From positions 16,445 to 80,444 of the forward strand of contig CAIWAD010000124.1 in NCBI GenBank assembly GCA_903910645.1: DNA of 64,000 bases, in the 5' to 3' direction. Position numbers and translations under genes: made by a program. This document shows, in pieces, positions 1 through 24,133 of this stretch; within the stretch, counting starts at the first letter, position 1, and each line of letters starts with the position of its first letter. The notes under the pieces are model-generated. The model ran no database searches, was not told the DNA's origin, and saw only the letters and a list, made by a program, of their open reading frames with translations. This DNA comes from an uncultured bacterium. Lineage in GTDB: Bacteria > CAIWAD01.

Positions 1-1098
1 CTTCAGGGACAGAAGGCCCAGGAAGCCCAGGATGAGGGCGATGATCCAGAAGCGGATGACCACCTTGGTCTCCGCCACGCCGCGATGCTCGAAGGCGTGG
101 TGGATGGGTGCGCGATAGAAGATGCGCCGCCCCAGGATGCCGATGCCAATCTTCTCCTGGATCAGCACGCTGGCTCCTTCCAGCACAAAGACGCCGCCCA
201 CGATGAGGAAGAGCACTTCCTGGCGCAGCATGAGCATCACGGCGGAGAGCAGGCCGCCCAGGGCCATGCTGCCCGTGTCTCCCATGAAGACCTGCGCCGG
301 AAAGAAGTTGTACCACAGGAAGCCCAGACCGGCGCCGATGACCGCGCCGCTCAGCACGGCCAGTTCCCCCATGCCGGGCACATAGGTGAATTGCAGGTAG
401 CCGCTCAGCACCTCGTTGCCCAGCACATAGGCGAAAATGGCGTAGACCATGAAGGAGATGGAGGCGGGCACCACGGCCAGGCCGTCCATGCCATCGGCGA
501 AGTTCATGCTGTTGGAGACGCTCAGGAAGACCATTACCACCCATGGCACGGCCAGCCATCCCAGATCCAGCACCGGCCCTTTCACAAAGGGCAGCATGAG
601 CTGGCTGCGCAAATCCTCCGGCAAGGGCGAGGCCGCGGAGATGAGCCAGACACCAAAAGCGGCGCCATAGGCCCCCTGTAGCCCGAGTTTGGACAACTGG
701 GAAAGGCCATGCTTGCCGCTGCCACCCTTCAGCTTGCCCCAGTCGTCCAGCATGCCCACGCCGCCAAACCACAACAGGGCCGAGACCGCCGCCCAGGCGA
801 ATGGGCTGTCCGGGGTCAGCCACAACAGGTAGCCACCCAGGATGGCCAGGATCATCATCAGGCCGCCCATGGTGGGAGTGCCTCGCTTGTTGGAGACATC
901 AATGACCCCGTAATCCTCCACCACATCGCGGATGCGCTTGCGGTGCAGGAAAAGGATCACCCGGCGGCCGATGAGCAGGCTTACAAGGAAAGTGGTCAAC
1001 GCGGCCATCACGGCGCGGAAAGTCAGGTAGTGCACCAGGCGCAGGAAACCGGGGCCGCCCAGCTCCTCACGCAGGAGGTCCGCCAGCCAGATCAGCAT
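1..1098 (-). CDS. mraY: Phospho-N-acetylmuramoyl-pentapeptide transferase MraY; the 3' end runs off the window edge
   Basis: Absent from the ORF track because it is open at position 1. My minus-strand translation from the ATG at 1098-1096 reads MLIWLADLLREELGGPGFLRLVHYLTFRAV...NKRGTPTMGG...NFADGMDGLA...FMGDTGSMALGG...APIHHAFE. The start overlaps the murG stop by 7 nt. Confidence 0.9.
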   Translation of the reverse strand, partial: MLIWLADLLREELGGPGFLRLVHYLTFRAVMAALTTFLVSLLIGRRVILFLHRKRIRDVVEDYGVIDVSNKRGTPTMGGLMMILAILGGYLLWLTPDSPFAWAAVSALLWFGGVGMLDDWGKLKGGSGKHGLSQLSKLGLQGAYGAAFGVWLISAASPLPEDLRSQLMLPFVKGPVLDLGWLAVPWVVMVFLSVSNSMNFADGMDGLAVVPASISFMVYAIFAYVLGNEVLSGYLQFTYVPGMGELAVLSGAVIGAGLGFLWYNFFPAQVFMGDTGSMALGGLLSAVMLMLRQEVLFLIVGGVFVLEGASVLIQEKIGIGILGRRIFYRAPIHHAFEHRGVAETKVVIRFWIIALILGFLGLLSLK

Positions 1099-3074
1099 GT
1101 TTCCTCCGCTTTCTGGCCGGCCAGATCCCGCATGGCCTGTTTCAAGGGAAAGCGTGGGCGGAAATGTGTGCTGGTGAGCAGGAAGCTGTCCAGCTCGCCT
1201 TTCAGATCCGCCAGGGGAAGCTCGCCACCATGCACGCGCAAGTCCAGCGCCCGGATGGCCGCCTCACGCACGCGGCAATTGGCGTGTCGCGCCAGTGGCA
1301 GAATCCACTCCCGCCAGGATGCGGCCGGCATGCAGGCCGCCCACCACCACGCCACGGCCTGCGCCTCCTCGAAATTGCCCTTGAGGCGGAAGCGGGCCAT
1401 GTGCCGCACCACAGCCTCCGTGGCCTCAGCCTTCAGGACCCCCAGGCTGCGGATGGCCTCCACCCGCGCTTCCCAGTAGGGATCCTTCAGCGCCGCTCCC
1501 AGCACGCGCGCCGAATCCGCCGTCAGCGGCAATTCCGCCAGGGCCGTGCACAGGTTGCGGCGGATGAAGCCGTTCTGACGGTGGCGCTCGCCCATCAGGC
1601 GTGGCAGCAAGCCAGGCCTTCCCTTGTCCTCCGCCAGACGCACCAGCAGGGGCAGGGCATCCTGAAGCCCAAGGCGGCCCGCCAGTTTGATGCCGGCGTT
1701 GCGTTCCAGCCAGGAAGGACTGCAGAGGGCCGCCAGACAGCGGTATTCCACATAGCGCACATCGTGGGGATCCGTCAGGCGCGGCAGCCGCTGCAGAAGC
1801 TGTTCCGTGCCCAGACGCTCCAGCGTGGCGCCCGCGGGCACCTGCCCCGCGCCATCCAGGGTCGGCAGCGTGCCAATGGCCAGCACCGAGGCCAGCCGAC
1901 CCAAGCGCTCGCGGGCATCGGCGTGGAAACCGGATCGCGCGCCGCGCGAGAGCCCCTCCCGACGCTCCTTGTCCTCCAGCAAGGCCAGCAAGGCTTCCAG
2001 CAGACGCTCCGGCCGCACACCCGCCTCGATGCCATGGCCCTCCACCAGTGGCTCCTCCAGCAGCAACTCCGCGGCTCCCGCGCGCTCCGCGCTACGGGCA
2101 TTGGCCGTTTGGTGGTCTCCCGGAAGGCCCATTTTGGGAATCAGCAGTGCGGGCCGCCCCATGGCAAGCAGTTCAAAGATGGCGCCTGCGCCAGCCCGGC
2201 AACACACCAGATCCGCCGCTCCATAGGCCAGCTGGATGCGGTCGAAATAGGGCCTGGCGTGATACAGGGGCGCCAGCTCCGCCCAGTCGGGAACTTCACG
2301 AAACAGGCGGCCCAGCTGTTCGGCGTGCTCCGCGGTGGCGTCCCATGCCGTTCCCGCCGACATGCCGGTGCCGTGCAGCACCTGGATGCCCTTGCGCAGG
2401 AGTTGGGGCAGGATGTGGTACAAGGCGCGGTTGATGGCCCGGGCCCCCTGGGATCCGCCGAAGACGAACAGCACGGGGCGGGCGGGATCCAGTCCCAGTT
2501 CGCGGCAGGCTTCCACGCGGTCGGGCAGCTGCTCCAGCCCCGCACGCACGGGATAGCCCACGGTGTGGGTGCGGCAACCCGGCAAATGGCCGGCGGACTC
2601 GGGGAAGGTAAGGGCCACCAGATCCGCCACGCGGCCCGCCATGCGGTTCATCAACCCGGCGCTGGCGTTCTGCTCATGGATGAGAATGCCGCAGCGCAAC
2701 AGGCGCAGTTTGCGCAACAGCGCGGCGGCGAAAACCGTGGGCGCGGCGGCGTAGCCTCCGGTGGCCACCACCACCTGCGGCCGGAAACGCAGCAGGTGCA
2801 GGGAGGCCTGGGCCACGCCCAGGATCAGCTTCGCAATGAAGAGGGGAAGGCGCGGCGAGCGCAGTCCGGGAAAACCCACGGCGGGGGCGGACTGAAAGGG
2901 CAAGTCCAGCTGGCCGCTCTCCTGCAAGCCGCGCAGGATGCGCTCCTCCGCCCTTCCGCGCGTGCCAATGTACAGGCCCTTCCACGAGCCATCCGCCAGC
3001 AAGGCCTGGGCCACCGCAAGCGCCGGGTAGACATGTCCACCCGTCCCGCCGCCAGTGAACACCACCCGCTTCAC
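1092..3074 (-). CDS. murG: MurG (GT28 UDP-GlcNAc:lipid I transferase) fused to a C-terminal HEAT/PBS-lyase-like repeat region of about 270 aa
   Basis: VVFTGGGTGGHVYPALAVAQAL, ILIHEQNA and GGSQGARAINRA are MurG motifs. The tail carries HEAT-like repeats (DPYWEARVEAIRSLG, NCRVREAAIRALD). I chose the GTG start at 3074, which forms a GTGA overlap with the upstream stop; the 713-aa ORF-track version is an Arg/Pro-rich extension. Confidence 0.85.
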   Translation of the reverse strand: MKRVVFTGGGTGGHVYPALAVAQALLADGSWKGLYIGTRGRAEERILRGLQESGQLDLPFQSAPAVGFPGLRSPRLPLFIAKLILGVAQASLHLLRFRPQVVVATGGYAAAPTVFAAALLRKLRLLRCGILIHEQNASAGLMNRMAGRVADLVALTFPESAGHLPGCRTHTVGYPVRAGLEQLPDRVEACRELGLDPARPVLFVFGGSQGARAINRALYHILPQLLRKGIQVLHGTGMSAGTAWDATAEHAEQLGRLFREVPDWAELAPLYHARPYFDRIQLAYGAADLVCCRAGAGAIFELLAMGRPALLIPKMGLPGDHQTANARSAERAGAAELLLEEPLVEGHGIEAGVRPERLLEALLALLEDKERREGLSRGARSGFHADARERLGRLASVLAIGTLPTLDGAGQVPAGATLERLGTEQLLQRLPRLTDPHDVRYVEYRCLAALCSPSWLERNAGIKLAGRLGLQDALPLLVRLAEDKGRPGLLPRLMGERHRQNGFIRRNLCTALAELPLTADSARVLGAALKDPYWEARVEAIRSLGVLKAEATEAVVRHMARFRLKGNFEEAQAVAWWWAACMPAASWREWILPLARHANCRVREAAIRALDLRVHGGELPLADLKGELDSFLLTSTHFRPRFPLKQAMRDLAGQKAEETC

Positions 3075-4147
3075 GCGTGGGCCTCGCGCAGGCGATCCAG
3101 CGCGCCGCCCTGGACTTCGCGCCGGGCCGCGTCGCACACCCGGCGCAACTCCGGACAATTGTGGAAGGCGGGGTTTTCCAGCAGCTCCAGCAGGTGATCC
3201 AGCGCCGTCGGCACATGCTGCAGGAACCACCACTTCCCTTTCACCCGGCTGAGCAGGCCATAAGCGCCAAGGGCCTGCATCATGCGATGGGCGGCCACCA
3301 GCGGGTATAGAGCCAGAAAAGAGGCGGCGCTCTCCAGTCCGCGCTCCTCGCGGCGAAGGGCGTAGCCCTCCAGCAGCTGGGCCCGGGTGGCGGAAGGCAG
3401 CCGCAGGTAGGGATCGTTGATGAAGGAGGCCACATCGTACTGTGGCGGACCCAGGCGGGCGCCCTGGAAGTCAATGATGCGCCAGCGTCCCGCCGTGCGC
3501 AGCACATTGGTGCTCTGGAAATCCCGGAAGAGGATGCCCCAGCGCGTCTGGGTCTCCACTTGGCGCGCCAGCGCGTCGCACTCCGCATGGAAGGCCGCGC
3601 GGTCCAGCGGCAGGCCCATCAGGCCATCCACGAAACGCTCACGGAAATAGCCGGATTCCCACACCGTCATCAGCTCATGGTCATAGGGAAGTGCGTGGAC
3701 GCGGCTTGGGTCGAATTGGCCGTGCAGGCCAGCCTGCAAATCCAGCAGAATCTCCAGCACCTCCGCCATCCACCGGGCGGTGAGTGGCGAGTCCCGACCT
3801 TCGCGCTCCACCATGGCCAGCAGGAGCTCGTCTCCCAGATCCTCCACCAGGTACCAGTGGGCGTCCAGATCGGCGTGCACCAGGCTGGGCCCATGTCCAC
3901 CCGCCTCCTGGAGCAGACCGCCCACATACCAGAAGGAGTGGTTCTCGTTCAACGGCCCACCAAAGGTCTGGGGGGTGGGGTTCTGCACCAGCACCAGGCT
4001 ATGGTCGCTGTCGCCGTGGGGCCAGATGCGGGTCATGACGCGGTCGCTGCCCCCACCCGGCATGTGCCAGGCGCGGGGCTCGCGATGTTCCAGGCCGGCC
4101 GCCGCCAGATAGGCCGCGGGCTGAAGGAGGGGATCGGGCATGCTCAT
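3071..4147 (-). CDS. AmgK-like anomeric MurNAc/GlcNAc kinase (aminoglycoside-phosphotransferase fold)
   Basis: LFRDFQSTNVL...IIDFQGARLGPPQYDVASFINDPY is the Brenner/APH catalytic region. GGGSDRVMTRIW is nucleotide-loop-like. HRMMQALGAYG lies in the C-terminal part, as in AmgK-type kinases. Confidence 0.6.
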   Translation of the reverse strand: MSMPDPLLQPAAYLAAAGLEHREPRAWHMPGGGSDRVMTRIWPHGDSDHSLVLVQNPTPQTFGGPLNENHSFWYVGGLLQEAGGHGPSLVHADLDAHWYLVEDLGDELLLAMVEREGRDSPLTARWMAEVLEILLDLQAGLHGQFDPSRVHALPYDHELMTVWESGYFRERFVDGLMGLPLDRAAFHAECDALARQVETQTRWGILFRDFQSTNVLRTAGRWRIIDFQGARLGPPQYDVASFINDPYLRLPSATRAQLLEGYALRREERGLESAASFLALYPLVAAHRMMQALGAYGLLSRVKGKWWFLQHVPTALDHLLELLENPAFHNCPELRRVCDAARREVQGGALDRLREAHA

Positions 4148-4305
4148 GCCCGAAGGTAGGGCTTTGGCGCAAAGGAGTCTGTTGGGCCTGGCTCACCTGC
4201 GGGATTGGCGCACATGCGGTGGATGTGTTTTGAAGTCCAATGCCCAGGAGATCAGCGAGAATCCTCACACAGCGGAAGTGGCATGGAGCGCCAAGTAGCC
4301 AAGCC

Positions 4306-6306
4306 TTAGCGCAAGAGACTTAATCGTTGCACGCTGCGCCCATTGGGCGTTTCCAGCACCAGCAGATAAAGTCCGCCCGCCAGGCCTTCGCCATCCAGGC
4401 GCGTCACAAATGCCCCGGCGGGACCATTGCCTTCCACCAGACGCCGCACTTCCTGACCGGCCAGGTTGAAAAGGCGCAGGCTGCGCGTGCCGGCCTGGTG
4501 GCTTTCCCAACTGATCAGGGTGGAAGGGTTGAAGGGATTGGGCCAGGCCTCCAGCAGGGGGATTTCCGTGGCGCGGGGAGGCACCACCACCGGCGGCCCG
4601 GGCTTCACATCCGTTTCATCCACTTGCAGGGCCAGCGAGCAGGTCTGACCCCCCGCAATGGCGGTAAAGCCCACATTGGGTTGGGGAACCACGCATTGAC
4701 CGTAAAGAAAATGCCCCCACGCCACCACGCTTCCGTCGCTCTTCAAGCCCATGCTGTGCAGGCTGCCACAAGCCACCGCCACAAAGTCTGTGTTGGGCTC
4801 CGGCACATCGCATTGCTGCCAGCCATTCCAGCCCCAGGCAACCACGCTGCTGTCCGCGCGCAAGGCCAGGTTGTGGTAGGGTCCGGCGGCGATGGCGGTG
4901 AAGCCCTCATTGGGGGAAGGCAGGTCGCACTGGCCGTACTCGTTGTTGCCCCAGGCCGCCAGAACTCCGCTCTGGCGCAAGCCTATGGTGTGCAGACCAC
5001 CGGCGGCCACATCCCGCCAATTGGTATTGGATCCTGACACGGTGCATTGGCCCGCCGAGTTCAGGCCCCAGCAGGAAATCATGCCGTTGCTGCGCAGTCC
5101 CACGCTGTGGGCCGTGCCGGCGTCCACTTTCAGCCACCCCATGTTGGGGCCGGGCACCACGCATTGGTTGAAGAAATTCCATCCCCAACCCACGGCCGTG
5201 CCGTCCTGCCGCAGGCCCATGCTGTGGTTACCGCCCGCCGAGACCGCATTGAAGAGCGTGGCGGCAGGCACGGAGCACTGTCCGTAGCTGTTGTCTCCCC
5301 AGGCCGCCACCGTGCCGTCCTCGTGCAGGAGCAGGCTGTGGTACTCGCCCGTGTCCACGGCGCGGGCCCACTGACCCAGCCCGCCTGGCAGGCACTGTCC
5401 ACGGGCGTTGTCCCCCCAGAGCAGGAGAGTGCCATCCTGCCGCAGGGCCAGGCTGAAGTTTCCGCCCGCGGCGATGAACACGCAATCCTGCGCCTCATCC
5501 GGCACGGCGCATTGGCCCAGGCTGTTGTCGCCCCACGCGGCCACCGTACCATCCTCCCGCAAGCCCAGGCTGTGTCGGGCGCCAGCGGCGATGGCGCTGA
5601 AGCCGCTGTTGGGCTCCGGCACCTGGCACTGGCCCTGCTCATCCCAGCCCCAGGCCACAATGGATGCATCCTGCCGCAGCAACAGGCTGTGGGCCTCGCC
5701 GGCGGCAAGGGCCAAGCCGCCGACGGCGTCTTCCGGCACCTGGCATTGGCCGTGGAGATCATTCCCCCAGGCCTGCACGCCTCCATTCTCCAAGAGCACC
5801 AGGCTGTGGAAGTGGCCCGCCGCCACGGCCCGGCAGGGTGGCAGGGAGTCCGGCACGGCGCATTGGCCTTCTGTGGACCTTCCCCAGGCCGCCACTCCGC
5901 CACTGTCCCGCAATGCCAAACCGTGGCCAATGCCGGCGGCCACGGCCACGAAGTGTTCGTTGGGCTCCGGCGTCAGGCATTGCCCCTGGGTGTTCCACCC
6001 CACTGCAAGCACGGTGCCATTGGCGCGCAGGCCAACCGTGAAGGCGTCCCCCGCCGCCACCTGAACCCAATGGGCATTGGCGCCAGGCAGGAAGCCTTGT
6101 CCCCAGGAGTTGTCTCCCCATACCACCATCACGCTGTCCGGCGTGATGCCCAGGCCGTGTCCCACGCCGCAGGCCGCCTGCGCAAGCCCGTGGGTCAGGC
6201 GCGGGGCCGGCACCAGCAGGGTGCCCCAGGCGCTCAGGGCCGCATGGTTCTGGGCAAGGGCAACAAGCGGCGCAAGTCCAAGCAGGCATCGCAGAAGGAC
6301 GGTCAT
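4306..6306 (-). CDS. Secreted RCC1-repeat beta-propeller protein with a T9SS-type C-terminal sorting domain
   Basis: Signal peptide MTVLLRCLLGLAPLVALA. I counted 13 repeats of the AWG-N-x-GQC-VP type. The C-terminus reads WPNPFNPSTLISW...LRLFNLAGQEVRRL...GLYLLVLETPNGRSVQRLSLLR. Confidence 0.85.
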   Translation of the reverse strand: MTVLLRCLLGLAPLVALAQNHAALSAWGTLLVPAPRLTHGLAQAACGVGHGLGITPDSVMVVWGDNSWGQGFLPGANAHWVQVAAGDAFTVGLRANGTVLAVGWNTQGQCLTPEPNEHFVAVAAGIGHGLALRDSGGVAAWGRSTEGQCAVPDSLPPCRAVAAGHFHSLVLLENGGVQAWGNDLHGQCQVPEDAVGGLALAAGEAHSLLLRQDASIVAWGWDEQGQCQVPEPNSGFSAIAAGARHSLGLREDGTVAAWGDNSLGQCAVPDEAQDCVFIAAGGNFSLALRQDGTLLLWGDNARGQCLPGGLGQWARAVDTGEYHSLLLHEDGTVAAWGDNSYGQCSVPAATLFNAVSAGGNHSMGLRQDGTAVGWGWNFFNQCVVPGPNMGWLKVDAGTAHSVGLRSNGMISCWGLNSAGQCTVSGSNTNWRDVAAGGLHTIGLRQSGVLAAWGNNEYGQCDLPSPNEGFTAIAAGPYHNLALRADSSVVAWGWNGWQQCDVPEPNTDFVAVACGSLHSMGLKSDGSVVAWGHFLYGQCVVPQPNVGFTAIAGGQTCSLALQVDETDVKPGPPVVVPPRATEIPLLEAWPNPFNPSTLISWESHQAGTRSLRLFNLAGQEVRRLVEGNGPAGAFVTRLDGEGLAGGLYLLVLETPNGRSVQRLSLLR

Positions 6307-6403
6307 GACAACAGTTCCTGTAGGAGGGTCGGCTGTGTGTTTGCAGGGAGCTTAGCATGCGAAGGATGGGCTGACAAGGAGAACCCGCCGCCTCCTCATC
6401 ATT

Positions 6404-6435
6404 AAAAGCCGGCCCCCCAGGTGGAGGGCCGGCTT
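6404..6435 (-). terminator. Rho-independent terminator candidate for the 6495-8135 gene
   Basis: Perfect 10-bp stem, AAGCCGGCCC (6406-6415) paired with GGGCCGGCTT (6426-6435). On the minus-strand RNA it is followed by UUUUAAU. It lies about 60 nt after the stop codon. Confidence 0.6.
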
Positions 6436-6494
6436 GTCTTCGTGCCCGCGCAGGGAGTTGCTTGTCCCTGGAGCGCGGCAATGGAGCCCGCCGT

Positions 6495-8135
6495 CTATTG
6501 TACGGCGCGCACCTGGAATACCTTCATGCCCGTGGCGGGCAGCACAAGGGAAGTACCCGTCGTGCTTCCTTCCAGGGTCATGGTGGAGTAACCCGATGTG
6601 GAGCTGTAGACATTGTAGCTGACAGCCAGGGGCACGGCCGTCCAGCTTAGCACCGCCTGTCCGCCCGTGTAGGTGATGTCCAGTCCGGGGGCGCAGAGGA
6701 AGTTGTCCCAGGCCACCGTGGGCAGGGTCACCACGGGGGTGGCATCATCCAGGGTCAGGGCGCGGTTGGCAATGCCATTCTCCCATTCCCAATTGGTGCC
6801 GTCCATGGTGTGGGTGAACTTGTACTCCACATCAAATGCCGTTCCGGCGGGGAAGACCACCGTGCCCGTCCACACGCCGTCGGCATCGCCATCGGCCAGG
6901 GCATTGGAGCCGCCCGTCCAGTCCAGGGGAGCGGCACTGCCTTGCACGGCCACGCCCGTCACGCCGCTCATGCAACCCATGTTCACGGCGAAGTCCACGC
7001 TGACATCCACCGTGGTGCCCACGGGCGGGGTCCAGTTGTTCCACAGGTCGGCGTCAAGCAGCATGAAACCGTTGTCGGCCATGCACAGGAAACGGTTGGG
7101 AGTGTCTTCCCAGCTCCACACCGTGCCGTTGCTGCGGGTGAACTTGTACTCACTGGTGTTCACGGTGCCAATGGGGAAGCTGACCGTGAGGGTGTAGACG
7201 CCGTCGTGGTTGAAATCGTTCATGGGCCGGCCGCCGGCGGTCCAGTTCAGCGGAGCGCGGCTGCCCTGCAGGGAGACGCCACCCGAATAGCTGGCGGGAT
7301 CCTGGTTGCGCATGTCCACGGCGAAGACCACCTGCTGCTGGGCCACCAGGGGATGCTCGATGCAGGGACAGACCTCCTGGTCGTTCCAGTAGCCCATGTA
7401 GCTGCCTTCCGTGGCGCCCAAGTCAATGGTGTACTCGCGGTTGGCGAAGGGACCGCCCGACAGGGATTCCCAGGCGGTGCCATTGCGGAACTTGAACTCG
7501 ATGGTGGTGGCGGAGCCAGCGGGCCAGGCGATGTCGGTGCTGTAAAGTCCACCGCCCACCGGGGTCATGGCCTGATAGTTCCAGCCGTTAAAGGAGCCGG
7601 AAATGCCCGGGCCGGGGCCATCGGGGGCCACGCAATGGAAGTCGCCGGTCACATGCAGCACGAAATTCTCCGTGGTGGCCTGCTGCACCAGATAGTAGGC
7701 CGGAGAGACTGCATTGAAGGTTCCCATGGGACTGCCCGGACGAGCCGTGAACTCCGCCGCGCCGTCGCCATCGGCGAATTCGCAGTAGAAGAACACGCTG
7801 TCACCGGTCAGGGCGCTCACGGGGATGTCGGCGAAGTACTCGTCCATGGGCGTGTAGCAGTCGCCGATGTTCAGGGTCATGGGCAGAGATGTGAAGCTGC
7901 CTTGTCCCTGGGCGCGATAGTAGAAGGTCTCGGTCATGTCGGCGCACTCCGTGCTGTCGCACATGCCGGTGCAACCGGTCTTCAGGGCGCGGGCATAAAC
8001 GCGGACGGCGTTGCCGTTGGGCACCGTGTCGCCGTTCTCCTGCCACTGCAGGTAGCTCTGCTCCACCAGGGCCGCCGCCGGCTGGGCCAGGACGGCCAGC
8101 AGGGCAGCCACTGCGGAAAAGTGAAGGACTTTCAT
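6495..8135 (-). CDS. Secreted protein with three CBM20-like (starch-binding-type) modules and a C-terminal FN3-like module
   Basis: Signal peptide MKVLHFSAVAALLAVLAQPAAA. Repeated modules read GSFNGWN...EFKFRNG, LQGSRAPLNW...DGVYT...EYKFTRSNG and VQGSAAPLDW...DGVWT...EYKFTH. The tail is LSWTAVPLAVSYNVY. Confidence 0.6.
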   Translation of the reverse strand: MKVLHFSAVAALLAVLAQPAAALVEQSYLQWQENGDTVPNGNAVRVYARALKTGCTGMCDSTECADMTETFYYRAQGQGSFTSLPMTLNIGDCYTPMDEYFADIPVSALTGDSVFFYCEFADGDGAAEFTARPGSPMGTFNAVSPAYYLVQQATTENFVLHVTGDFHCVAPDGPGPGISGSFNGWNYQAMTPVGGGLYSTDIAWPAGSATTIEFKFRNGTAWESLSGGPFANREYTIDLGATEGSYMGYWNDQEVCPCIEHPLVAQQQVVFAVDMRNQDPASYSGGVSLQGSRAPLNWTAGGRPMNDFNHDGVYTLTVSFPIGTVNTSEYKFTRSNGTVWSWEDTPNRFLCMADNGFMLLDADLWNNWTPPVGTTVDVSVDFAVNMGCMSGVTGVAVQGSAAPLDWTGGSNALADGDADGVWTGTVVFPAGTAFDVEYKFTHTMDGTNWEWENGIANRALTLDDATPVVTLPTVAWDNFLCAPGLDITYTGGQAVLSWTAVPLAVSYNVYSSTSGYSTMTLEGSTTGTSLVLPATGMKVFQVRAVQ

Positions 8136-8161
8136 GGGACACCTCTAGTTTTGTGGGTGAT

Positions 8162-11100
8162 TCACAAGCCTGTGCCGACGGCGGTGACCACGAAGCATGC
8201 GCCCGGGCCCGCCACCGGCAGAGAATGACTGGTTCCGCCCGTTTCCGCCAGGGGGGCGCCGGAGGGCGCGTCCCAGGGATGGGCCAATTGATGGATGCGA
8301 TAGGAAATGGCTCCCGGCACCACCGCCCAGCTGAGAAGCACGGTTCCATCGGGCTGCACCGATGCGCTCAGCACCGGCGCGGCGGGCGCCACCGCCACGG
8401 GATTGTTGGGCGCCACGCCCATGAGCGGCATGGGTCCGGCCAGGGGTGGCTGGGCGAAGGTCCACCAGCTGTTCAGCGTGACATTGGTGCCCACGGGATT
8501 GGCCTGGGGCCAGGCCACCACCGTTACCTGGTTGTTCTCCTGGGTGAAGTGGGCGCACAACGCCAGGCCCACGGGGTTGCCCAATTCGCTCCAGGGGATG
8601 CGCAGCTCCGTCAGCGTGTTGCCCGTCCAGCCCTCGTAACTGAGGCCCGTGTGGGTGCCGAACTGGCGGTAGGTCCAGGCGCCGGCACTCCATCGGTTGA
8701 TCTGCATGCTGTTGCCGCCGCCCTCCACCGCCACGCAGTATTCGGGGCGATGGGCCGTGGTGTAGCCCACACGGCTCCATGAGTCACGCGTGGCGCCGCT
8801 TCCCGCCACCAGATCCGTGTCGATGCCAAGAAAGAAATCCCCCAGGGAAAGGGCGCGACCGTGCCAGCCCACATAGAGTGCCTGGCTGTCCCAGGTAAGG
8901 AAAAGGCTGTCGCTGCGGGATTCCATCAGCTCCGTGGAAGGGATGAAGTCCCAGGTGCCATCCACCAGCACGCTGTGGGGCGTTGTGCCGTTGGGCACAG
9001 TGAACGCCGCCGTGTCGGCGGCGGGATCCACCAGATTCCCGGCCACATCCCGCACACCCACGGCGCGCAGGGAGCCGGACATGCCGCCGCTCAAGCCCGA
9101 CAGCCTTAGATAGACCCGCCGCGTGTAGGCCTGGCGCTCCGCTGACAGAAGGGTGACACCGCCCGGGAAGCCGCTCAGTTGCCAGCTGCCGGCAAGTTCC
9201 GCGCTGACTTCGTCCACGGCCTCATTGAAATCCACCACGGCAATGTTCGGGGCAATGAAGGCCGCCGTGCCCACCACCTGGGGGCCCTTCACATCCAGGT
9301 CCGTGGCAGCCAGGTCAAGAAGCTCGGGCACTTGTCCCTGTGCGTTGGGAGCCGTGCTGCGTCCGGCATAGAAGAGATAGCGGAAACGCCCGTCGCCGCG
9401 AATTTCGTCACCCTTCACCAGGGTGCCCTGGAAGTCCGAGGAATGCAGGGCGCCACCGTTGCCCAACACCAGCGCGGCCGTCCAGCCGGTGGTGGTGTTG
9501 CGCTGGCCCATCCAGTCGCTCTGGGGCCAGGATGCCCCGGGATCCCACAAGCGCGTGGTGCGGGCATTCCACAAAAGATCCAGGTAGTCCGGCGTGAAGC
9601 CGTGTTTCACCCAGGTCTCCGACGGCGTGTCGTAATCGCAGGTGATCCAGGGCTGGCCGGCTTGCACCGTGAAGCTCTTCACCAGCCCGCCACTGTGGAC
9701 AAGGCGCACCCGGGCGAATCCCGCGCCCAGGCTGTCAACGGTCATGGCGTAGGGATCATTCTCCGTGAGGGGGCTTACATCGCTGAAGGCCGCCACATGA
9801 TTGTTGGAGGAGCCATCGTTGAAATCACCCTCCGTGTCAACCCAGTAGGCGCTGCAGGAGCCCACCAGGCTGACGGCGTCGGTGCTGTCCTTGGCGAAGA
9901 TCCACGGGGCGCGGCCGCCGTTGGACTCGAAGACCGCCAGCACGCGATCACTGAAGAGCACCATCTCCTCCACGCCGTCGGCGTCCACATCCGCCGCCTG
10001 GGCGCCGGTGCCCTGCCAGGCCTGGCCGCCTTGCCAGCGCCCCGCCTCGGCGTAGACGCGGGCGTTCTTGATGTGCGAGGCATAGCGATGGATCCAGCCA
10101 CTCACCTCGCTGCCATCATGCCATCCGGTTTCGTAGAGATTGGTCATGAGCACATACCAGGCCAGGGTGGACAGATCGTTGTCCGGGCTGCCCATCACCC
10201 AGTTCCAGCTTTGATCCCAGCTTTGGCCGTAATTCCACTGGGGGCTGTGCAGGTCGCTGTGGCTGGGGCTTCCGGCGAAATGCCCATACCAGCTGTTGCG
10301 CGTGCCCGGGCTGAGCCAGTCCGAACCATAACCACCCCGCCCGCCCAACAGGCCGTAAGTGCCGTTCTGCAGGTTGATGGCGCCGCCGCCAAATCCGCCC
10401 AGGGCGTTGTCCAGCTTCATGGACTCCACGCTCCCCGCGGCGCCGGCGATTTGCTGCACCAGCCAGATCATGTTGTTCAACGCACTGGGGAACTGGTCCC
10501 CGAAACCCGCCACCTCCGCCACCACTTCCCAGTCCGTGCCGTAGACCAGCAGTTCATCGGCGCTGGAATCCAGGATCATGTTCCAGGCACTGCCCGCGTC
10601 CCAATGGCAGGCACCGGTGAAGGAGCCGTTGATGGGAATGACCTGCAGATCGCCCTGGCCGGGCACATTGATGGTGTAGATGTGGCGGTCGTTGGCCCAG
10701 TTGTTCTGGTAGTCGCAGTGCTCCTCCTGGTCCAGCAGCACGCCCCACACGCCGTGCGGCAGCCAGTCATCGCCAATCCAGTCCACCACATGGGGCGAAG
10801 TGTCCCAGGCGTTGCCGTCGTTGTCCGTGGGGCTTACCCACACACGCTCCGGCACCCAGGCCACATGGGGCGTGTAGCCGTAGCGCCAGGCGGTCATCTG
10901 CGCGTGGGTGTGCACGGACCAATCGTTCATGCTGTCCTGCACGAAGGGCATGATGTGCTGGGCGTAGGCGCTGGTGAGCATGCCGGCCCACCCCTCGGAC
11001 ACGCCGCGTGTGAGCCAGGCGTTCCAACCTTCCACCGCGCCGGTGGGGTAGTACCACTCCGCCGCCGTTTGCAGGGGGCCGGACACATGGAAGTTGGCGG

Positions 11101-11878
11101 GCACATTGAGCACATCGTGCAGGCCCAGGATCTCGTCGAAGCCGTTGTGGGCGCTGCCGGTGTTCAGGTAGTCCATGAAGTGCTGGCCGTGGGCGGAGGC
11201 TTCGTCCCCCCACAGCACATCCGTCCAGGTAAGGCCCTGGTTGCCGTGGTGCACAAAAGCCACATGGTGGTTGACCCGTTCGCCATCGCGGCTGGCCACA
11301 TCGTCCACCGCGGGACTGGTCACGGTGCCCTCATGCGTGCTTAGACGCAAGGGAGCCTCCACACCCAGCAGGGCCGTCCATTCAACCCAATCCGCCGGCA
11401 GCCACAGCTCCATCACGGTGGCGCCAAGGGCCCGGCGCAGATCCGGCCGCGCCTTCTCCACCGTTCGCCACTGGCCCTGTTCCAGGACCTGGCGCTCCAG
11501 ACGCTCGTCGCCATTCAACACCAGACGCGCCGCCTTGGCCCCGTCCTGCGCCTCCACCACCAGCAGGGACTTGTCCTGCCAAGCATCGCGGGTGCCCACG
11601 CGCAGCACGGCCTGACCGTCCAGCACGCCAGCGCAGGCCAGGCTCAAGTCCAGGTCCTGACGCTGCAACCCATCAACTGCGTCCAGACCCACCATGCGCA
11701 GGCCGGGCGTGAAGCCTGGAGCATTGCCCAAGGGGGCTGCATATCCACCACCAGCAAGCATACACGGAAGCAGTATGCCCAAAATCAGCTTTGCGCCTGG
11801 GTGAAAATGAATGGGGGGATGGACTGGCCGCGGCATGGAAGCCCTTTCATCATCATAGGAACCCGCGAGAGCGAGCAA
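8162..11878 (-). CDS. Large secreted GH57-like glycoside hydrolase multidomain protein (the start may be the ATG at 11836)
   Basis: VAFVHHGNQG, FHVSGPLQTAAEWYYP, AWVPERVW and LVYGTDWEVVAE resemble GH57 conserved regions. Signal-like AKLILGILLPCMLAGGG. The FN3-like tail LSWAVVPGAISYRIH is similar to that of the neighbouring gene. Confidence 0.45.
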   Translation of the reverse strand: MLALAGSYDDERASMPRPVHPPIHFHPGAKLILGILLPCMLAGGGYAAPLGNAPGFTPGLRMVGLDAVDGLQRQDLDLSLACAGVLDGQAVLRVGTRDAWQDKSLLVVEAQDGAKAARLVLNGDERLERQVLEQGQWRTVEKARPDLRRALGATVMELWLPADWVEWTALLGVEAPLRLSTHEGTVTSPAVDDVASRDGERVNHHVAFVHHGNQGLTWTDVLWGDEASAHGQHFMDYLNTGSAHNGFDEILGLHDVLNVPANFHVSGPLQTAAEWYYPTGAVEGWNAWLTRGVSEGWAGMLTSAYAQHIMPFVQDSMNDWSVHTHAQMTAWRYGYTPHVAWVPERVWVSPTDNDGNAWDTSPHVVDWIGDDWLPHGVWGVLLDQEEHCDYQNNWANDRHIYTINVPGQGDLQVIPINGSFTGACHWDAGSAWNMILDSSADELLVYGTDWEVVAEVAGFGDQFPSALNNMIWLVQQIAGAAGSVESMKLDNALGGFGGGAINLQNGTYGLLGGRGGYGSDWLSPGTRNSWYGHFAGSPSHSDLHSPQWNYGQSWDQSWNWVMGSPDNDLSTLAWYVLMTNLYETGWHDGSEVSGWIHRYASHIKNARVYAEAGRWQGGQAWQGTGAQAADVDADGVEEMVLFSDRVLAVFESNGGRAPWIFAKDSTDAVSLVGSCSAYWVDTEGDFNDGSSNNHVAAFSDVSPLTENDPYAMTVDSLGAGFARVRLVHSGGLVKSFTVQAGQPWITCDYDTPSETWVKHGFTPDYLDLLWNARTTRLWDPGASWPQSDWMGQRNTTTGWTAALVLGNGGALHSSDFQGTLVKGDEIRGDGRFRYLFYAGRSTAPNAQGQVPELLDLAATDLDVKGPQVVGTAAFIAPNIAVVDFNEAVDEVSAELAGSWQLSGFPGGVTLLSAERQAYTRRVYLRLSGLSGGMSGSLRAVGVRDVAGNLVDPAADTAAFTVPNGTTPHSVLVDGTWDFIPSTELMESRSDSLFLTWDSQALYVGWHGRALSLGDFFLGIDTDLVAGSGATRDSWSRVGYTTAHRPEYCVAVEGGGNSMQINRWSAGAWTYRQFGTHTGLSYEGWTGNTLTELRIPWSELGNPVGLALCAHFTQENNQVTVVAWPQANPVGTNVTLNSWWTFAQPPLAGPMPLMGVAPNNPVAVAPAAPVLSASVQPDGTVLLSWAVVPGAISYRIHQLAHPWDAPSGAPLAETGGTSHSLPVAGPGACFVVTAVGTGL

Positions 11879-12022
11879 AAATGACGCCAGAAGGTCGGAC
11901 AGGCTTTCTTATTGATAATCATTGGCTTGGCTTGAAAAATCCACGAAGGGATGGGAATTGCCTTGCTCATAGCGCCGGAAATTGAACAGCATGGGGGAGC
12001 AATCCAAAAGAGGGTTCAGGAG

Positions 12023-16487: not shown

Positions 16488-18143
16488 TCAATAAGGTGCC
16501 GAGTCGTGGGCGTGGCCGTGGCACATCAAGGTGCAGTTGCCCTGGCTCAGGGATTGGCGCTCCACTTTCAGCCGGCCATCCAGCGGCTCAATCCAGGGTC
16601 GGTCCAGGCGCAGCAGGCCAGGCTGGTCCGGCGAGCCGTGGGGATCATGGCAGGAGGCGCAGGACAGGGCTCCGCGCCCCGTGTGCAGGTTGTGCCAGCG
16701 CCATCCTTCACCGCTGCTGAAGGAGCTTTCCTGATGGCAGGTGAAGCACAGGGCGTTCTCGCGGTCTTCACCTGTGGCGAAAGGCGAGGGATTGAAAGGC
16801 GCCTTGAGCAGGTGTTCGATGTTGGATCCGTGGGGGCCCTGGGGACCGGCGGGATCGTCGCTGCCATGGCAGTCGGAGCAGGTGATTTGGTCCAGGGCGC
16901 TCCATTCCTTTTTCAGGCTGGGCACCTCCGGATTCAGGCCGGGACCCATCACCGGATGGTAGCTACGGTTGCCCAAATCAAAATCCCGCGCCACATCGCG
17001 CTGGCCGGGAAGCGTGTTGCCCGTGAAGCCGTGGCACTTGAGGCAGATTTCGTATTCGAAGTCCGCCACATCCTTTTTCATGCCCAATCGGCTGATGCCG
17101 CTGACACCCTCCATGCTCCCCGGCATGGTGCGCACGCTGGACTGGCTGGACACAGCGTGGGGATTGTGGCAATCCGTGCAGCGCACGGCGCGGTTTTCAC
17201 GCGATCCCGCCAGGAAGCCCACAAAGCCCGACCCGTCCGGCTCCACGGTGCGGGAACCCGTGTGCACGCTCACCGGGTGGGTGAAGAGCTTGTCGAACTC
17301 CGCCCGCATGTTGTTGGGCGAAGGAATTTCCCTGGGCCCATCCACGCTGGCGTCGTGGCAACGGAAACACAGACTGTTCTCCTCCGCCAGCAGGAGGCGC
17401 GGCTGGGGTGGTGATGCGTGGATGCTGTGGCACTGGGCGCAGCTCAGTTCGCGCATCTCCGCGTAGAGGGGCTCGTCCGGGTTGGCGTGCACACTGTGGG
17501 ACCAGCCCTCCAGTCGGTGGCACTCCTGGCAAATGGCCCCCTGGGCGGACTCCACCTTCAGGAACTTGCCACGCGTGTTGTCGTGGGGGTCGTGGCAAGT
17601 GCTGCAGCGGATGCGCTCCCCGCGCAGGGTCATGCCCGAGGTGGCGCTGTCCGGTTTGGCCAGCTCGTGGTTGCGCGACCAGGTGAAGAGGTGAGTGTTC
17701 ATGTGGGTGGGCGCAATCTGCGCTCGTTCACCCAGATCCGTCTCCCGGCTGATGTGTTCGGCGGGATCCGTGGGAAAGGCCCGGGCCACGCTGCCATCGT
17801 GGCAGGCCAGACACAGTTGGCTGCCCGGATCGGCGGGGAAACCAGGCTCCAGATCATCGAGATGGGCACCCAGGGGGAAGGGCCCGCGGGGCAGGCGCCG
17901 GTCCCACAGGGGAATGAGCTGGTCGTGCACGCGGGGTCCGTGGCACACGCGGCAGAGCTGGCGCTCCATGGTGGTGTCGGAGGGCATCCCGGTGTGCCAG
18001 TGGGTCAGGTTGTGGGGTGAGGCCTGCACGCGGGAGGCTTTCACCTGGTCGGGATCGCTGGCCCCTGCCAGCAGGGCAAAGGCGCCCAGGGAAAGCGCGG
18101 GAAGGACGATCAGGGCCGCCCGGCGGAGCGAGAACATCACCAC
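16488..18143 (-). CDS. Multihaem cytochrome c (11 CxxCH plus one CX3CH)
   Basis: Signal peptide MVMFSLRRAALIVLPALSLGAFALLAGA. Motifs: CRVCH, CLACH, CSTCH, CQECH, CAQCH, CFRCH, CTDCH, CLKCH, CSDCH, CFTCH, CASCH and CTLMCH. Confidence 0.9.
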   Translation of the reverse strand: MVMFSLRRAALIVLPALSLGAFALLAGASDPDQVKASRVQASPHNLTHWHTGMPSDTTMERQLCRVCHGPRVHDQLIPLWDRRLPRGPFPLGAHLDDLEPGFPADPGSQLCLACHDGSVARAFPTDPAEHISRETDLGERAQIAPTHMNTHLFTWSRNHELAKPDSATSGMTLRGERIRCSTCHDPHDNTRGKFLKVESAQGAICQECHRLEGWSHSVHANPDEPLYAEMRELSCAQCHSIHASPPQPRLLLAEENSLCFRCHDASVDGPREIPSPNNMRAEFDKLFTHPVSVHTGSRTVEPDGSGFVGFLAGSRENRAVRCTDCHNPHAVSSQSSVRTMPGSMEGVSGISRLGMKKDVADFEYEICLKCHGFTGNTLPGQRDVARDFDLGNRSYHPVMGPGLNPEVPSLKKEWSALDQITCSDCHGSDDPAGPQGPHGSNIEHLLKAPFNPSPFATGEDRENALCFTCHQESSFSSGEGWRWHNLHTGRGALSCASCHDPHGSPDQPGLLRLDRPWIEPLDGRLKVERQSLSQGNCTLMCHGHAHDSAPY

Positions 18144-19930
18144 AGTCTCCTCAGCACATGGATCCAGGCCTCCGTGTCCTTCCGTCCAAAGTGGTCGGGA
18201 TCGCCCACGAAGCGCAGGTCGGTGGTCAGGGTCAGCTTGTTCAGTTCAAACTCCACGAAGGAGCGCAGCCACATGCGCTCGGACAACTGGTCCCGGCCAG
18301 GCCGCCAGGTGCCGCGCACATTCAGCGAGGCAAGACGCAGCGGCTGCCAGCGCAGATGCATGGACAGGCGGTGTTCCAGGTCCACCAGATCCGCCGCCAC
18401 CAGGTGCTGCAATGCCATGGCGCTCAACTGGGCCTGCAAGCGATGGCCCCGGGCTTTCACCCACACTTCGTTCTTCAGCGTGTTGCGCAAAGTGTCGTCG
18501 CTGTAGACCAAATGGCTGCCCACATGGCGGCGCCACTCCAGACGATGTCCGCCCTGCAGGGTGCCATGGGGATTCAGTGTGCTGTTGAAGCTGGTCAACT
18601 GATCCAGCTCCTTCTGGGAAGGATCGGCCCAGGGGGCCACTGTTTCCCGGTCTTGCATGCGGAAGAGCTCCGCTCGCTGCAGGGCGCGCATGCTGAAGCC
18701 CAGCCAGGGCAGGGGCTCCACCGGCGCGATCATCTCCACCGTGGCCCGTCCCACCAGCCCGCGGCCATATTCGCGCGTCTCCGCCCAGCCGCCGCCCAGG
18801 TCGCCGCGCAGGGACAGATTGCGCTTCAACCACAGGGAGCGATCCATGAACCGGGACCAGGACTGGTGTTGGCCCGCGGCCTCCACCGCCGCCGCCATAC
18901 GCGCCAGGGGCTTCACCTGGAAGACCGCCAGGGCCAGCACATCCCGCCTGTGGACAAGATCCTCGTCCGTGATGCGCACGCGCTCGGTGGAGGCGCGCAG
19001 TTCGGCGCCCACTTCCTCCAAGGGCATCCAGCGCCAGGAGGCGTCGGCGTGACGGCGCAGCACATCCCGCTCCTCCAGCTCGGTGAAATCCGCGCCGGCA
19101 TTGATGGACAGGCGATGCTTCCCCCACAAGGTGGTGCGCAGGCGGTTCTGCCCCAGCACGCGGCGCACGCCCTTGCGCTGCACCAAAGCCGAGTTGCTGT
19201 GGACATCCACGCCACCAGGCAGCTCACCCGCCATGCTCAAGCCCGCAAGGCTGCGCTGAAGATCGAAGTCAAGGCTGTCCGCCAGGCCATACCAGGAGCT
19301 CTCGCCCCAGGCACGCGCCACGAACTGGTGCCAGGCGGGCACGCGGTGCTCCACCTCGGCCCGCATGAATCGATGGTCCGAGATGGCCTCGCCATTGAGC
19401 ACGCGACGGTTGCCCGCCACCACTCCCAGCTCGGTGGTGGGCATGGGACGCAGGGCCAGGCGCCCGCCCACGATCAGGTCGCGCAGGCGCAGGCTGTCGA
19501 TGAGGAAGGCATTGGGACGCCGCCAGCCGTGACGGGCGAAGAGTCCCAGTTCCACTCCGCCCAGGGGCGTCCAACCCAGGTCCGCCTGGAACTCGGGCGT
19601 GTAGATGCGCTGCTCGTAAAGACTGTTCTGTGCCATGGTGGCGCCGGTGCGCAGCAGCCAGTCCAGGCCGCCGGCCTTTTGCACCTGGCCATGGGCACCC
19701 ACCACCACCCGCGCCGTGTGCAGGCGCAGGTCCTCCCCGTAGGCCCCGGCGTAGCTGGAATCACTGACCCAGGTGCTGGTGTGGTCAATCCAGCCGTCCA
19801 GGGTGAAGGATCGCGACGGCTGATAGGCGGGCGCCTGCACCCATGTCGGAACCTGGAACGCGCCCAGCGCCGAACCGACAAGGGAAAGGGCGAAGAGCAA
19901 GGCGCAACGCATGTGGCGGGATCCTCTCAT
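18137..19930 (-). CDS. Predicted outer-membrane beta-barrel (porin-like) protein
   Basis: I chose the ATG at 19930, which forms an ATGA overlap with the upstream stop. Signal peptide MRGSRHMRCALLFALSLVGSALGA. The body is rich in alternating aromatic/polar segments. The C-terminus ...WIHVLRRLW ends in an aromatic residue. Confidence 0.55.
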   Translation of the reverse strand: MRGSRHMRCALLFALSLVGSALGAFQVPTWVQAPAYQPSRSFTLDGWIDHTSTWVSDSSYAGAYGEDLRLHTARVVVGAHGQVQKAGGLDWLLRTGATMAQNSLYEQRIYTPEFQADLGWTPLGGVELGLFARHGWRRPNAFLIDSLRLRDLIVGGRLALRPMPTTELGVVAGNRRVLNGEAISDHRFMRAEVEHRVPAWHQFVARAWGESSWYGLADSLDFDLQRSLAGLSMAGELPGGVDVHSNSALVQRKGVRRVLGQNRLRTTLWGKHRLSINAGADFTELEERDVLRRHADASWRWMPLEEVGAELRASTERVRITDEDLVHRRDVLALAVFQVKPLARMAAAVEAAGQHQSWSRFMDRSLWLKRNLSLRGDLGGGWAETREYGRGLVGRATVEMIAPVEPLPWLGFSMRALQRAELFRMQDRETVAPWADPSQKELDQLTSFNSTLNPHGTLQGGHRLEWRRHVGSHLVYSDDTLRNTLKNEVWVKARGHRLQAQLSAMALQHLVAADLVDLEHRLSMHLRWQPLRLASLNVRGTWRPGRDQLSERMWLRSFVEFELNKLTLTTDLRFVGDPDHFGRKDTEAWIHVLRRLW

Positions 19931-23165: not shown

Positions 23166-23188
23166 GGGGCCCTCCGGCGCGGGCTGTG

Positions 23189-24133
23189 TCAGGGAATGTC
23201 GAAGCGGATGATGCGGCTGGCGCGGCTGTCCACCACCCACCACGAAGCTCCGCAACACACAATGGCCGTGGGACCCTGGAGTTGCCAGGGCTTGCCCTTC
23301 AGCATCAACTGGCCCTGGCTCTGGGCGTACTCGTCATAGGCGTGCACCATGCCCAGGTAGCTGTCGGTGATGAGCAGGCCCTTGCCGTTCCAGCAGGCGC
23401 AGGCGCCCTTGGGACGATAGAGACGCTCGCCATCGGTGCCAAAAGAGCCCACCATGCGGTCAAAGTTCCCCAAGCGCGTGTAGGCCTGGATGCGGCCGCC
23501 CAGCACATCAATCACCATGAAGCCGTTCATGTGGCGGGACAGGATGCCCGGAAACTTGAACTCCTCCACGCGATCGCCCGGCTTGCCGTCGGGCAGGCTC
23601 ATGCCCGCCATGCGACGCATGGGGCGGATCTCGTCGGCGCCCCGGCCAATCACTTTCAACAGGGCGCCGTCGTAGCTGATCATCAGCAGGCGATGGTTGT
23701 CGTTGTCGGAGACCACCAGCTTGTCCTCCAGCGCCAGCACATCCACCGGATCGCAATTGGCCGGAAGCTTGATGGTCTGCACGGGACGCCCGTCCAGGGT
23801 GGTGACGAAAATGGAGCCGGCATCCGGATCGCTCACATAAAGGCGGTCCTTCCAGATATCGTTGCCCACCGGGTTCACAAAACCATCGTGGCGGATTTCA
23901 CGCATCAGGGCGCCCTGGGGGCTGATGACCACCACGCGCTTGTTCAGGCCGTCCACCACATAGGCGTTGCCGCGCTCGTCGGCCGCCAGGTCCGTGGGAT
24001 AAGTGGTGCCGGCGGCCACATCCTCCAGAATGCGCACATCCACCGCGCCGGCCACGCCGGCCAGCATCAGAAGCAGGATCGGGAGGAGCAGGGCTCTCCG
24101 ATCAGTACGCGGGCGGCAGGAAGAAGACTTCAT
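23189..24133 (-). CDS. NHL-repeat beta-propeller protein, secreted
   Basis: Signal peptide ...RRALLLPILLLMLAGVAGA. Repeats: PTDLAADERGNAYVVDGLNKRVVVI, NPVGNDIWKDRLYVSDPDAGSIFV and VLALEDKLVVSDNDNHRLLMI. Confidence 0.8.
   Translation of the reverse strand: MKSSSCRPRTDRRALLLPILLLMLAGVAGAVDVRILEDVAAGTTYPTDLAADERGNAYVVDGLNKRVVVISPQGALMREIRHDGFVNPVGNDIWKDRLYVSDPDAGSIFVTTLDGRPVQTIKLPANCDPVDVLALEDKLVVSDNDNHRLLMISYDGALLKVIGRGADEIRPMRRMAGMSLPDGKPGDRVEEFKFPGILSRHMNGFMVIDVLGGRIQAYTRLGNFDRMVGSFGTDGERLYRPKGACACWNGKGLLITDSYLGMVHAYDEYAQSQGQLMLKGKPWQLQGPTAIVCCGASWWVVDSRASRIIRFDIP

Follow-up and report, generated by a model that had tools for sequence, protein, structure and literature searches.

A murG gene fused to HEAT repeats overlaps mraY outside the dcw cluster in uncultured bacteria

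The window analysed here is a stretch of 64,000 nucleotides from an uncultured bacterium (GTDB lineage CAIWAD01; assembly GCA_903910645.1, contig CAIWAD010000124.1, positions 16,445 to 80,444 of the forward strand). At its left end, three overlapping genes lie on the minus strand. The first is an APH-family sugar-kinase-like gene, distantly AmgK-like (3071..4147, 358 aa), which was recognised by the Pfam APH model and the NCBIfam AmgK models. It is followed by a murG gene fused to a HEAT-repeat domain (murG::HEAT, 1092..3074, 660 aa), which was assigned from Pfam, TIGR01133, an AlphaFold2 model and the length class of its relatives. The third gene is mraY (1..1098, TIGR00445), of which 366 of the 368 codons lie in the window because the left edge cuts its 3′ end. 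The Logan contig L088, which is 100% identical to positions 1-12000 of the window, contains the gene in full (368 aa). As a sequence-only reading of the window had proposed, the three genes overlap at both junctions. It was read directly from the sequence that the TGA stop codon of the kinase gene (3073-3071) lies within the GTG start of murG (3074-3072), forming a GTGA overlap at 3071-3074, and that the TGA stop codon of murG::HEAT (1094-1092) lies within the mraY start in an ATGCTGA overlap at 1092-1098. The motifs GAGG and GGAGG precede the starts of murG and mraY. The GTG start at 3074 was favoured over that of the longest open reading frame (ORF; start 3233) by the N-termini of homologues, and a public gene call for the murG product is exactly 660 aa, in agreement with the GTG start.

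The N-terminal part of the 660-aa protein is a GT-B glycosyltransferase domain of the GT28 family (residues 1-391, 1902..3074), as delimited by the TIGR01133 alignment, the closest PDB folds and the conserved motifs. Pfam assigned PF03033 (GT28 N) to residues 4-153 with 90 bits and PF04101 (GT28 C) to residues 201-389 with 94 bits, both exceeding the Pfam cutoffs. A Foldseek search with the GT-B part returned the MurG structures 1f0k, 1nlm, and 3s2u as the closest folds, with template-modelling (TM) scores of 0.80-0.87 on the target. The identity of the module MurG to Escherichia coli MurG is about 30%. In an alignment of 18 fused proteins, the MurG motifs GGTGGH, GGY, HEQN, and GGSQGA are invariant or nearly so, the positions being T7-H14, G106-G107, E134/N136, G206-G210, E301, H321-Q322, and N325. 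I take these positions to correspond to the substrate-binding residues of E. coli MurG, namely the G-loop, the catalytic-site Glu, and the UDP-GlcNAc-binding DHQ/N region. MraY produces lipid I, and MurG turns lipid I into lipid II. The domain is thus MurG at the family level, and conversion of lipid I to lipid II is its predicted activity.

TIGR01133, the MurG equivalog model, covers residues 1-391 only, leaving about 269 residues on the C-terminal side. Pfam HEAT_2 was found at residues 504-558 of this remainder. The earlier proposal that MurG carries about 270 extra C-terminal residues with HEAT-like repeats was thus borne out. An AlphaFold2 model of the whole protein, calculated from the 18-sequence alignment (mean predicted local distance difference test, pLDDT, 87.9; predicted TM score 0.84), places an all-helical region (residues 423-634) after the GT-B domain. 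Tandem helix-turn-helix repeats form an alpha-solenoid of the PBS-lyase HEAT type there, with about 12 helices (residues 423-633, 1176..1808). Sixteen C-terminal residues are invariant in the 18 sequences, including N459, K463, R505, R506, N507, D531, Y533, E535, R603, F638, P640, and F642. The last three belong to a conserved C-terminal tail, TSTHFRPRFPLK (residues 634-645, 1140..1175), in which P643 is nearly invariant too, although identity among the 18 proteins falls to 32%. The pLDDT drops below 50 at residues 637-649 of the model; together with the conservation of the tail, this points to a short linear motif. The HEAT domain might have served as a generic basic membrane anchor, but this role was ruled out, since its isoelectric point varies from 5.3 to 10 among homologues. 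Nearly all homologues have a basic GT28 part. Because the HEAT domain lacks uniform basicity, a specific protein contact is favoured over generic lipid binding.

A frameshift or an assembly error might have created such a fusion, and the sequence-only reading had named this as a way in which it could fail. However, the same 660-aa protein recurs in ten database entries (identity at least 90%), which come from several assemblies, and 116 of the 120 best relatives (identity down to 32%) are 606-723 aa in length. These 116 proteins have GT28 and, in most cases, HEAT Pfam domains. The identical sequence in independent assemblies and the conserved architecture rule out an artefact, and the fusion is conserved in related metagenome-assembled genomes (MAGs). 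In a few loci, MurG and HEAT seem to be split into two ORFs, and these cases resemble frameshift errors: the split in L090 interrupts the conserved DHQ motif of MurG, that in L005 falls in a GC-rich repeat, and L089 and L006, both long-read contigs, contain many broken genes. Most of the fused proteins are named "glycosyltransferase" or "hypothetical protein" by NCBI, because they score under the cutoff of the MurG model.

MraY matches Pfam Glycos_transf_4 and the MraY signature, and passes the equivalog cutoff of TIGR00445 (271.6 against 192.05 bits; its relatives score 281-292 bits). Its identity to E. coli MraY is 40%, and module MraYs range from 37 to 44%. The motifs DD, NxxNxxDGxDGL, GDxGS, and PIHH are conserved in the alignment. 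Two sequence variations were seen. In most module MraYs, including that of the window, the third His of PIHHH is replaced (PIHHA). In a subclade labelled Gemmatimonadetes (L003 and L018), the otherwise near-universal motif KRGTPTMGG is replaced by NQA-KTYGG.

Is this gene pair found elsewhere, and where does it lie in the genomes? In the classical dcw (division and cell wall) cluster, the order is mraY-murD-ftsW-murG, and MurG is about 360 aa. A scan of species-representative genomes gave at least 80 loci, and these, together with other fetched loci, were searched by tblastn with the window proteins and the E. coli dcw proteins. All 60 unfused MurG loci among the matches listed sit in canonical ...mraY-murD-ftsW-murG-murC... 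clusters, whereas all 25 HEAT-fused loci lie outside dcw. No dcw neighbour was found within 10 kb on each side of these 25 loci, except for one murE (L004). The reading of the cluster as non-canonical is supported. In 24 of the 25, mraY lies directly downstream; the contig of the remaining one (L009) ends first. In 21 of 26 loci, the ATG of mraY and the stop codon of the HEAT-bearing ORF share nucleotides: the overlap is ATGA in 17, ATGCTGA in three, and 20 nt long in one. The other five junctions are gaps of 1-7 nt (four loci) or a 447-nt spacer (one locus). Short overlaps of start and stop codons are commonplace in operons; the conservation of the murG::HEAT/mraY junction among distant relatives goes beyond chance. 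In neighbour-joining trees, which carry no support values and are indicative only, the 27 HEAT-associated MurG domains are monophyletic, and so are the 23 adjacent MraYs. Subclades of the module track the labels of the MAGs: Acidobacteriota, Syntrophobacterales/"delta proteobacterium", Myxococcota, Gemmatimonadota, and the window clade. In the 64-kb window, no other dcw gene was found, and the remaining 60 kb has no other gene for cell-wall synthesis.

The window has no murJ gene. In relatives, murJ lies directly after mraY in L089, L010, and L024, or directly before murG in L009 and L021. A profile made from the HEAT domain only was searched against 1.84 billion representatives; generic multi-HEAT giant proteins also matched. 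Among the 66 full-length matches, 36 are GT28-HEAT proteins, 23 are HEAT only, four are GT28-MurJ-HEAT proteins of about 1310 aa, two are MurJ-HEAT, and one is MurJ-GT28-HEAT. Proteins carrying MurG, MurJ, and HEAT in a single chain (P0355, P0360, P0373, P0374, and P0349) are 1219-1333 aa in length and occur in two domain orders. At the locus L091, a 1306-aa MurG-MurJ-HEAT gene (L091:3615-7535) shares an ATGA with the mraY gene that comes next. The order at the locus L092 is murG, murJ::HEAT, and mraY, and here, too, the HEAT end overlaps mraY by ATGA. The MurJ parts pass the TIGR01695 cutoff of 235.55 bits: the MurJ neighbour in L089 scores 329.4, the fusion P0373 scores 289.4, and the fusion P0338 scores 258.7 bits. 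Since the HEAT end adjoins mraY in both the MurG-carried and the MurJ-carried forms, the adjacency of HEAT and mraY is the constant feature. Both termini of MurJ are cytoplasmic; thus, all of the fused parts would face the cytoplasm. In summary, murG::HEAT and the mraY gene directly after it form the conserved core, at times joined by murJ.

In the clade of the window, the unit is longer. In L088 and in a 13.8-kb ENA contig, the gene order is kinase (358 aa), MurG::HEAT (660), MraY (368), NTP_transferase (303), and Exo_endo_phos (279). Beyond the window edge in L088, mraY and the NTP_transferase gene overlap in TGATG, and the latter overlaps the next gene in TAATG, so that five genes overlap in series. 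A 40-nt gap and a Peptidase_C25 gene (1311 aa) follow. Scans for promoters and terminators gave nothing above chance, and the five-gene stretch has no internal terminator. The fifth overlapping gene (L088:13994-14833, 279 aa) encodes an exonuclease/endonuclease/phosphatase (EEP)-family protein with an N-terminal hydrophobic segment, read as membrane-anchored, which is 43% identical in L001.

What are the kinase and the transferase? AmgK and MurU form a salvage route for N-acetylmuramic acid (MurNAc) that bypasses MurA and MurB. The kinase scores 47.4 bits with Pfam APH (cutoff 23.2) and does not match Pfam Choline_kinase. Two AmgK models are its sole significant NCBIfam matches. Its sole PDB match is 3csv (E 9.4e-13), to which its catalytic loop FRDFQSTN and metal-binding motif IIDFQGA align at HRDFHAQN and VIDFQDA, as in the kinase fold. 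A homologue at 58% identity is named N-acetylmuramate 1-kinase by JGI. Other homologues (33-43% identity) are fused to NTP_transferase domains (P0220, P0257, P0258, P0259, and P0262), one entry joins a GH3 tail, a kinase, and an NTP_transferase, and these fusions likewise best match the AmgK and MurU families. NagZ-like GH3 genes adjoin kinase homologues, too. The sequence-only reading had asked for murU in the genome; a MurU-like gene is the one that lies immediately past the window edge, overlapping mraY. The best NCBIfam family of its product is MurU (NF045761). Among full-length PDB matches, the best is 4y7t (E 9.6e-16), taken here to be Pseudomonas putida MurU, and the next is 8hhd, named MurNAc-alpha-1-phosphate uridylyltransferase (MurU) by its depositors. 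In a sister clade (L005 and L090), a GH3 gene directly follows mraY, and its best family is a NagZ-type beta-N-acetylhexosaminidase (89 bits against a cutoff of 207). The best reading is that the kinase and the transferase are an AmgK/MurU-like salvage pair, membership of either family not being established. The kinase and MurG::HEAT relatives come from contigs of equal length in eight further clusters (23232, 17773, 5392, 23138, 194027, 3718, 92343, and 60141). However, this link is limited to the clade of the window (MurG about 52% identical or more), and L002-L004 and L008-L026 have no kinase. The coupling of an AmgK-like kinase to the genes for the lipid-linked steps is thus confined to the window clade, where it is part of the five-gene overlap, and is not a property of the module.

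The family-level identities of the genes, the architecture, its conservation and synteny, and the predicted fold are established here. From the synteny, the fusion patterns, and the fold, I infer that the HEAT domain acts as an adaptor. The explanation proposed, which I hold at roughly even chances, is a compact lipid II module in which the HEAT adaptor keeps MurG, together with any MurJ, at MraY, and to which salvage genes were added in a clade-specific manner. In this explanation, murG and mraY would have left the classical dcw cluster and would travel as a translationally coupled pair, and this pair would be the housekeeping copy. The HEAT domain would be a cytoplasmic protein-binding adaptor that fixes the peripheral MurG, plus the flippase MurJ where present, to the integral membrane protein MraY, so that lipid I could be converted and passed on inside one complex. 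The stop/start overlap may favour matched synthesis of MurG and MraY. A docking peptide may be provided by the tail FxPxFP(L)K, which is invariant and probably disordered. In the window clade, the five-gene operon may link the salvage of MurNAc and/or N-acetylglucosamine (GlcNAc) into UDP-sugars to the two lipid-linked steps, with putative substrates for the kinase and the transferase. A further-reaching form of this proposal is that the HEAT-built MraY-MurG(-MurJ) complex is a metabolon and the sole lipid II pathway in a broad set of mostly uncultured lineages, replacing the dcw organisation, which is commonly regarded as near-universal. According to their labels, these would be Acidobacteriota, Gemmatimonadota, Desulfobacterota/Myxococcota, Latescibacteria, and the window clade, which resembles the Fibrobacterota-Chlorobiota-Bacteroidota (FCB) group. 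I regard this form as tentative, with the chances somewhat against it.

Several results weigh against the proposed explanation. The TIGR01133 score of MurG::HEAT is 218.8 bits, under the equivalog cutoff of 250.25, and the MurG part of the triple fusion P0373 (207.5 bits) is also under it. The kinase scores only 50.7 bits with NF045759 (cutoff 550) and 38.8 bits with NF045698 (cutoff 500), so that the label "AmgK-like" stands for its nearest family and not for close kinship, and the transferase scores 82.3 bits with the MurU model (cutoff 250). Each of the 23 HEAT-only entries may be a fragment, part of a frameshift split, or a genuine stand-alone gene. MAGs that bear the module have NCBI labels from several phyla, and horizontal transfer is possible. 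The mean identity of module MraYs to canonical ones is 37%, against 47% among canonical MraYs, a difference that would be seen with an old paralogue as well as with a deep lineage-specific orthologue.

The last point bears on the alternative that murG::HEAT-mraY(-murJ) is a second, specialised copy that exists beside a canonical dcw pair and makes lipid II, or a similar product, for a special purpose (for example, synthesis fed by recycling, a stage of development, or a variant glycan), with the HEAT domain directing it to a site or partner. The lower MraY identity and the sub-cutoff MurG score would be expected of such a copy, as would the separation of the module MurG and MraY clades, each from its canonical counterpart, and the recycling-type associates (the AmgK-like kinase, the MurU-like transferase, and the NagZ-like GH3). 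Some taxa with module-bearing members also have members with canonical clusters (module in L021 and canonical cluster in L071, Thermoanaerobaculia; module in L010 and canonical cluster in L053, Acidobacteriota), and a MurG paralogue able to stand in for MurG is known from actinobacteria. On the other hand, module MraY and MurJ pass their equivalog cutoffs with all catalytic motifs intact, and the identities to E. coli proteins (37-44% for MraY, about 30% for MurG) are within the range expected between phyla from general knowledge. The module subclades follow the taxon labels, suggesting long residence and not recent transfer. No genome with both a fused and an unfused MurG was seen among the matches listed, which is not informative on this point. 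Overall, a specialised copy seems unlikely. Still less probable, in my view, is that the HEAT domain recruits soluble or cytoskeletal partners (MurC-F, MreB, or FtsA/FtsZ) instead of MraY, in compensation for the co-localisation that the dcw gene order would give. A HEAT solenoid is a generic protein-binding fold, many of the invariant residues are charged, the dcw neighbours are lost from the module, and passages of PMC6420597 and PMC10214165 report MurG as a scaffold for Mur ligases in Bordetella pertussis. Yet the HEAT-coding end has a single invariant partner in the genomes, mraY, whether this end is fused to MurG or to MurJ, and the single murE mentioned above is the only gene for a Mur ligase or cytoskeletal protein within 10 kb on each side of the module. 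The initial suggestion that the HEAT domain could tether MurG to the divisome or the elongasome is likewise disfavoured: synteny and fusions indicate MraY and MurJ as the partners.

It is also improbable that the kinase and the nucleotidyltransferase are unrelated to peptidoglycan salvage, acting instead on choline in the manner of LicA/LicC or on another sugar 1-phosphate, and that they were packed beside murG::HEAT-mraY by accident. Their scores far under the AmgK and MurU cutoffs and the restriction of the association to one clade would agree with this, and most kinase homologues carry the JGI label "aminoglycoside/choline kinase family". In addition, the transferase has 303 aa against about 230 aa in the solved MurU chains. 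However, AmgK models are the only kinase families with significance, MurU is the top family for the transferase, and a LicC match extends over just 44 residues (E 2e-4), in contrast to the match to 8hhd, a structure named MurU. The Pfam result for choline kinase, the homologous kinases fused to MurU-like domains and found beside NagZ-like GH3 genes, the sister clade in which the NagZ-like GH3 gene comes right after mraY, and the serial overlap of all five genes also speak for salvage. A grouping of the kinase with choline or antibiotic kinases, which had been named in advance as fatal to the AmgK-like assignment, was accordingly not upheld.

How does the proposed lipid II module compare with known systems? 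Canonical MurG (355 aa in E. coli; 1f0k, 1nlm, and 3s2u) shares with the window protein the GT-B fold, the motifs, the best sequence and structure matches, and the pathway step beside MraY. In contrast to canonical MurG, the window protein scores under the TIGR01133 cutoff and has about 270 additional residues, consisting of the HEAT solenoid and the conserved tail, and its gene lies outside dcw and upstream of mraY instead of downstream of ftsW. MurG2, an alternative lipid II synthase of actinobacteria, is likewise encoded by a MurG-family gene outside the dcw cluster. It is said to be a paralogue able to replace MurG, an extra copy without a HEAT domain or coupling to mraY. PBS-lyase-type HEAT proteins (CpcE/F, MpeQ, and YibA) and the designed alphaRep proteins are only 16-21% identical to the window HEAT domain, which, unlike them, has its own invariant motifs (RNxGxKL, GFIRRN, DPYWEVR, and FxPxFPLK) and is dedicated to lipid II enzymes. 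The AmgK/MurU salvage systems of P. putida and Tannerella forsythia resemble the window clade in combining an APH-fold kinase with a small NTP_transferase, in being the best family and PDB matches, and in the association of relatives with NagZ-like GH3 enzymes. They differ in that the window-clade proteins score far under the equivalog level and have putative substrates, that the kinase and transferase genes are not adjacent but bracket murG::HEAT-mraY, and that the window-clade transferase has about 75 extra C-terminal residues.

Natural Mur chimeras have been surveyed by Shirakawa et al. (2023, PMC10214165), passages of which list MurE-MurF, MurC-Ddl, MurC-MurB, MurG-MurC, MurD-FtsW, and MraY-MurG and read the chimeras as signs of a multi-enzyme complex and of stoichiometric control. 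The murG::HEAT gene is similar in that it also fuses a protein of the peptidoglycan pathway. Unlike those chimeras, it joins MurG to a HEAT scaffold without catalytic function, and some relatives also join in MurJ; neither partner appears in these passages of the survey. A full-text literature search returned no paper combining MurG, "HEAT repeat", and MraY, and nothing specific to the module-bearing lineages was found in the literature on dcw evolution. The enzymes are known; their architecture and gene organisation seem to be uncharacterised as well as conserved and informative.

The rest of the window was also annotated. Three large, probably secreted proteins are encoded upstream of the operon on the minus strand (4306-6306, 6495-8135, and 8162-11878): an RCC1-repeat protein with a weak type IX secretion system (T9SS) C-terminal sorting domain, a CBM20 protein, and a 1238-aa protein without a Pfam match. 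A similar neighbourhood, including the 1311-aa Peptidase_C25 protein, exists in L001 and L088. The T9SS sorting domains and this neighbourhood suggest that the organism is of the FCB type and has type IX secretion. Further along the minus strand, 16488-33860 is taken up by a large gene cluster for multihaem c-type cytochromes. The multihaem cytochrome genes are at 16488-18143, 20952-23258 (MtrC/MtrF-like domains), 24102-26789 (with a fused cytochrome b561-type membrane domain), 26678-27481, 28250-29296, 29277-30392, and 32532-33860. Among them lie genes for an NHL-repeat protein (23189-24133), a cytochrome b (27478-28599), and rhodanese-domain proteins (30223-31410 and 31472-32464). The cluster looks like a module for extracellular or periplasmic electron transfer, possibly linked to sulfur. 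A 735-aa Peptidase_M23 protein (34350-36557, minus strand), of a family that includes peptidoglycan endopeptidases and regulators, is encoded 30 kb from the operon and is the only other product of the window that may be related to the cell wall. A gene of IcmF-type architecture (38208-41510, minus strand) encodes a B12-binding domain, a MeaB-like GTPase, and methylmalonyl-CoA mutase in one chain of 1100 aa, and is followed by a RecBCD-like set (45947-54704). Rfam and tRNA scans of the window gave no matches.

The membrane organisation of MraY, MurG, and MurJ and the channelling of lipids I and II are still debated. The HEAT scaffold coupled to mraY and the single-chain MurG-MurJ-HEAT proteins are genetic evidence for a complex and offer tractable structural targets. 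If the complex is indeed a metabolon that serves as the sole lipid II pathway, the triple fusions would be ready-made single-chain complexes of lipid II synthase and flippase. Two core dcw genes can exit the cluster jointly in several large environmental lineages, and this bears on the idea that co-translational assembly constrains the dcw gene order. In the window clade, AmgK-like and MurU-like genes bracket murG::HEAT-mraY, and this arrangement suggests joint expression of cell-wall sugar salvage and the lipid-linked steps, a wiring not seen in model organisms.

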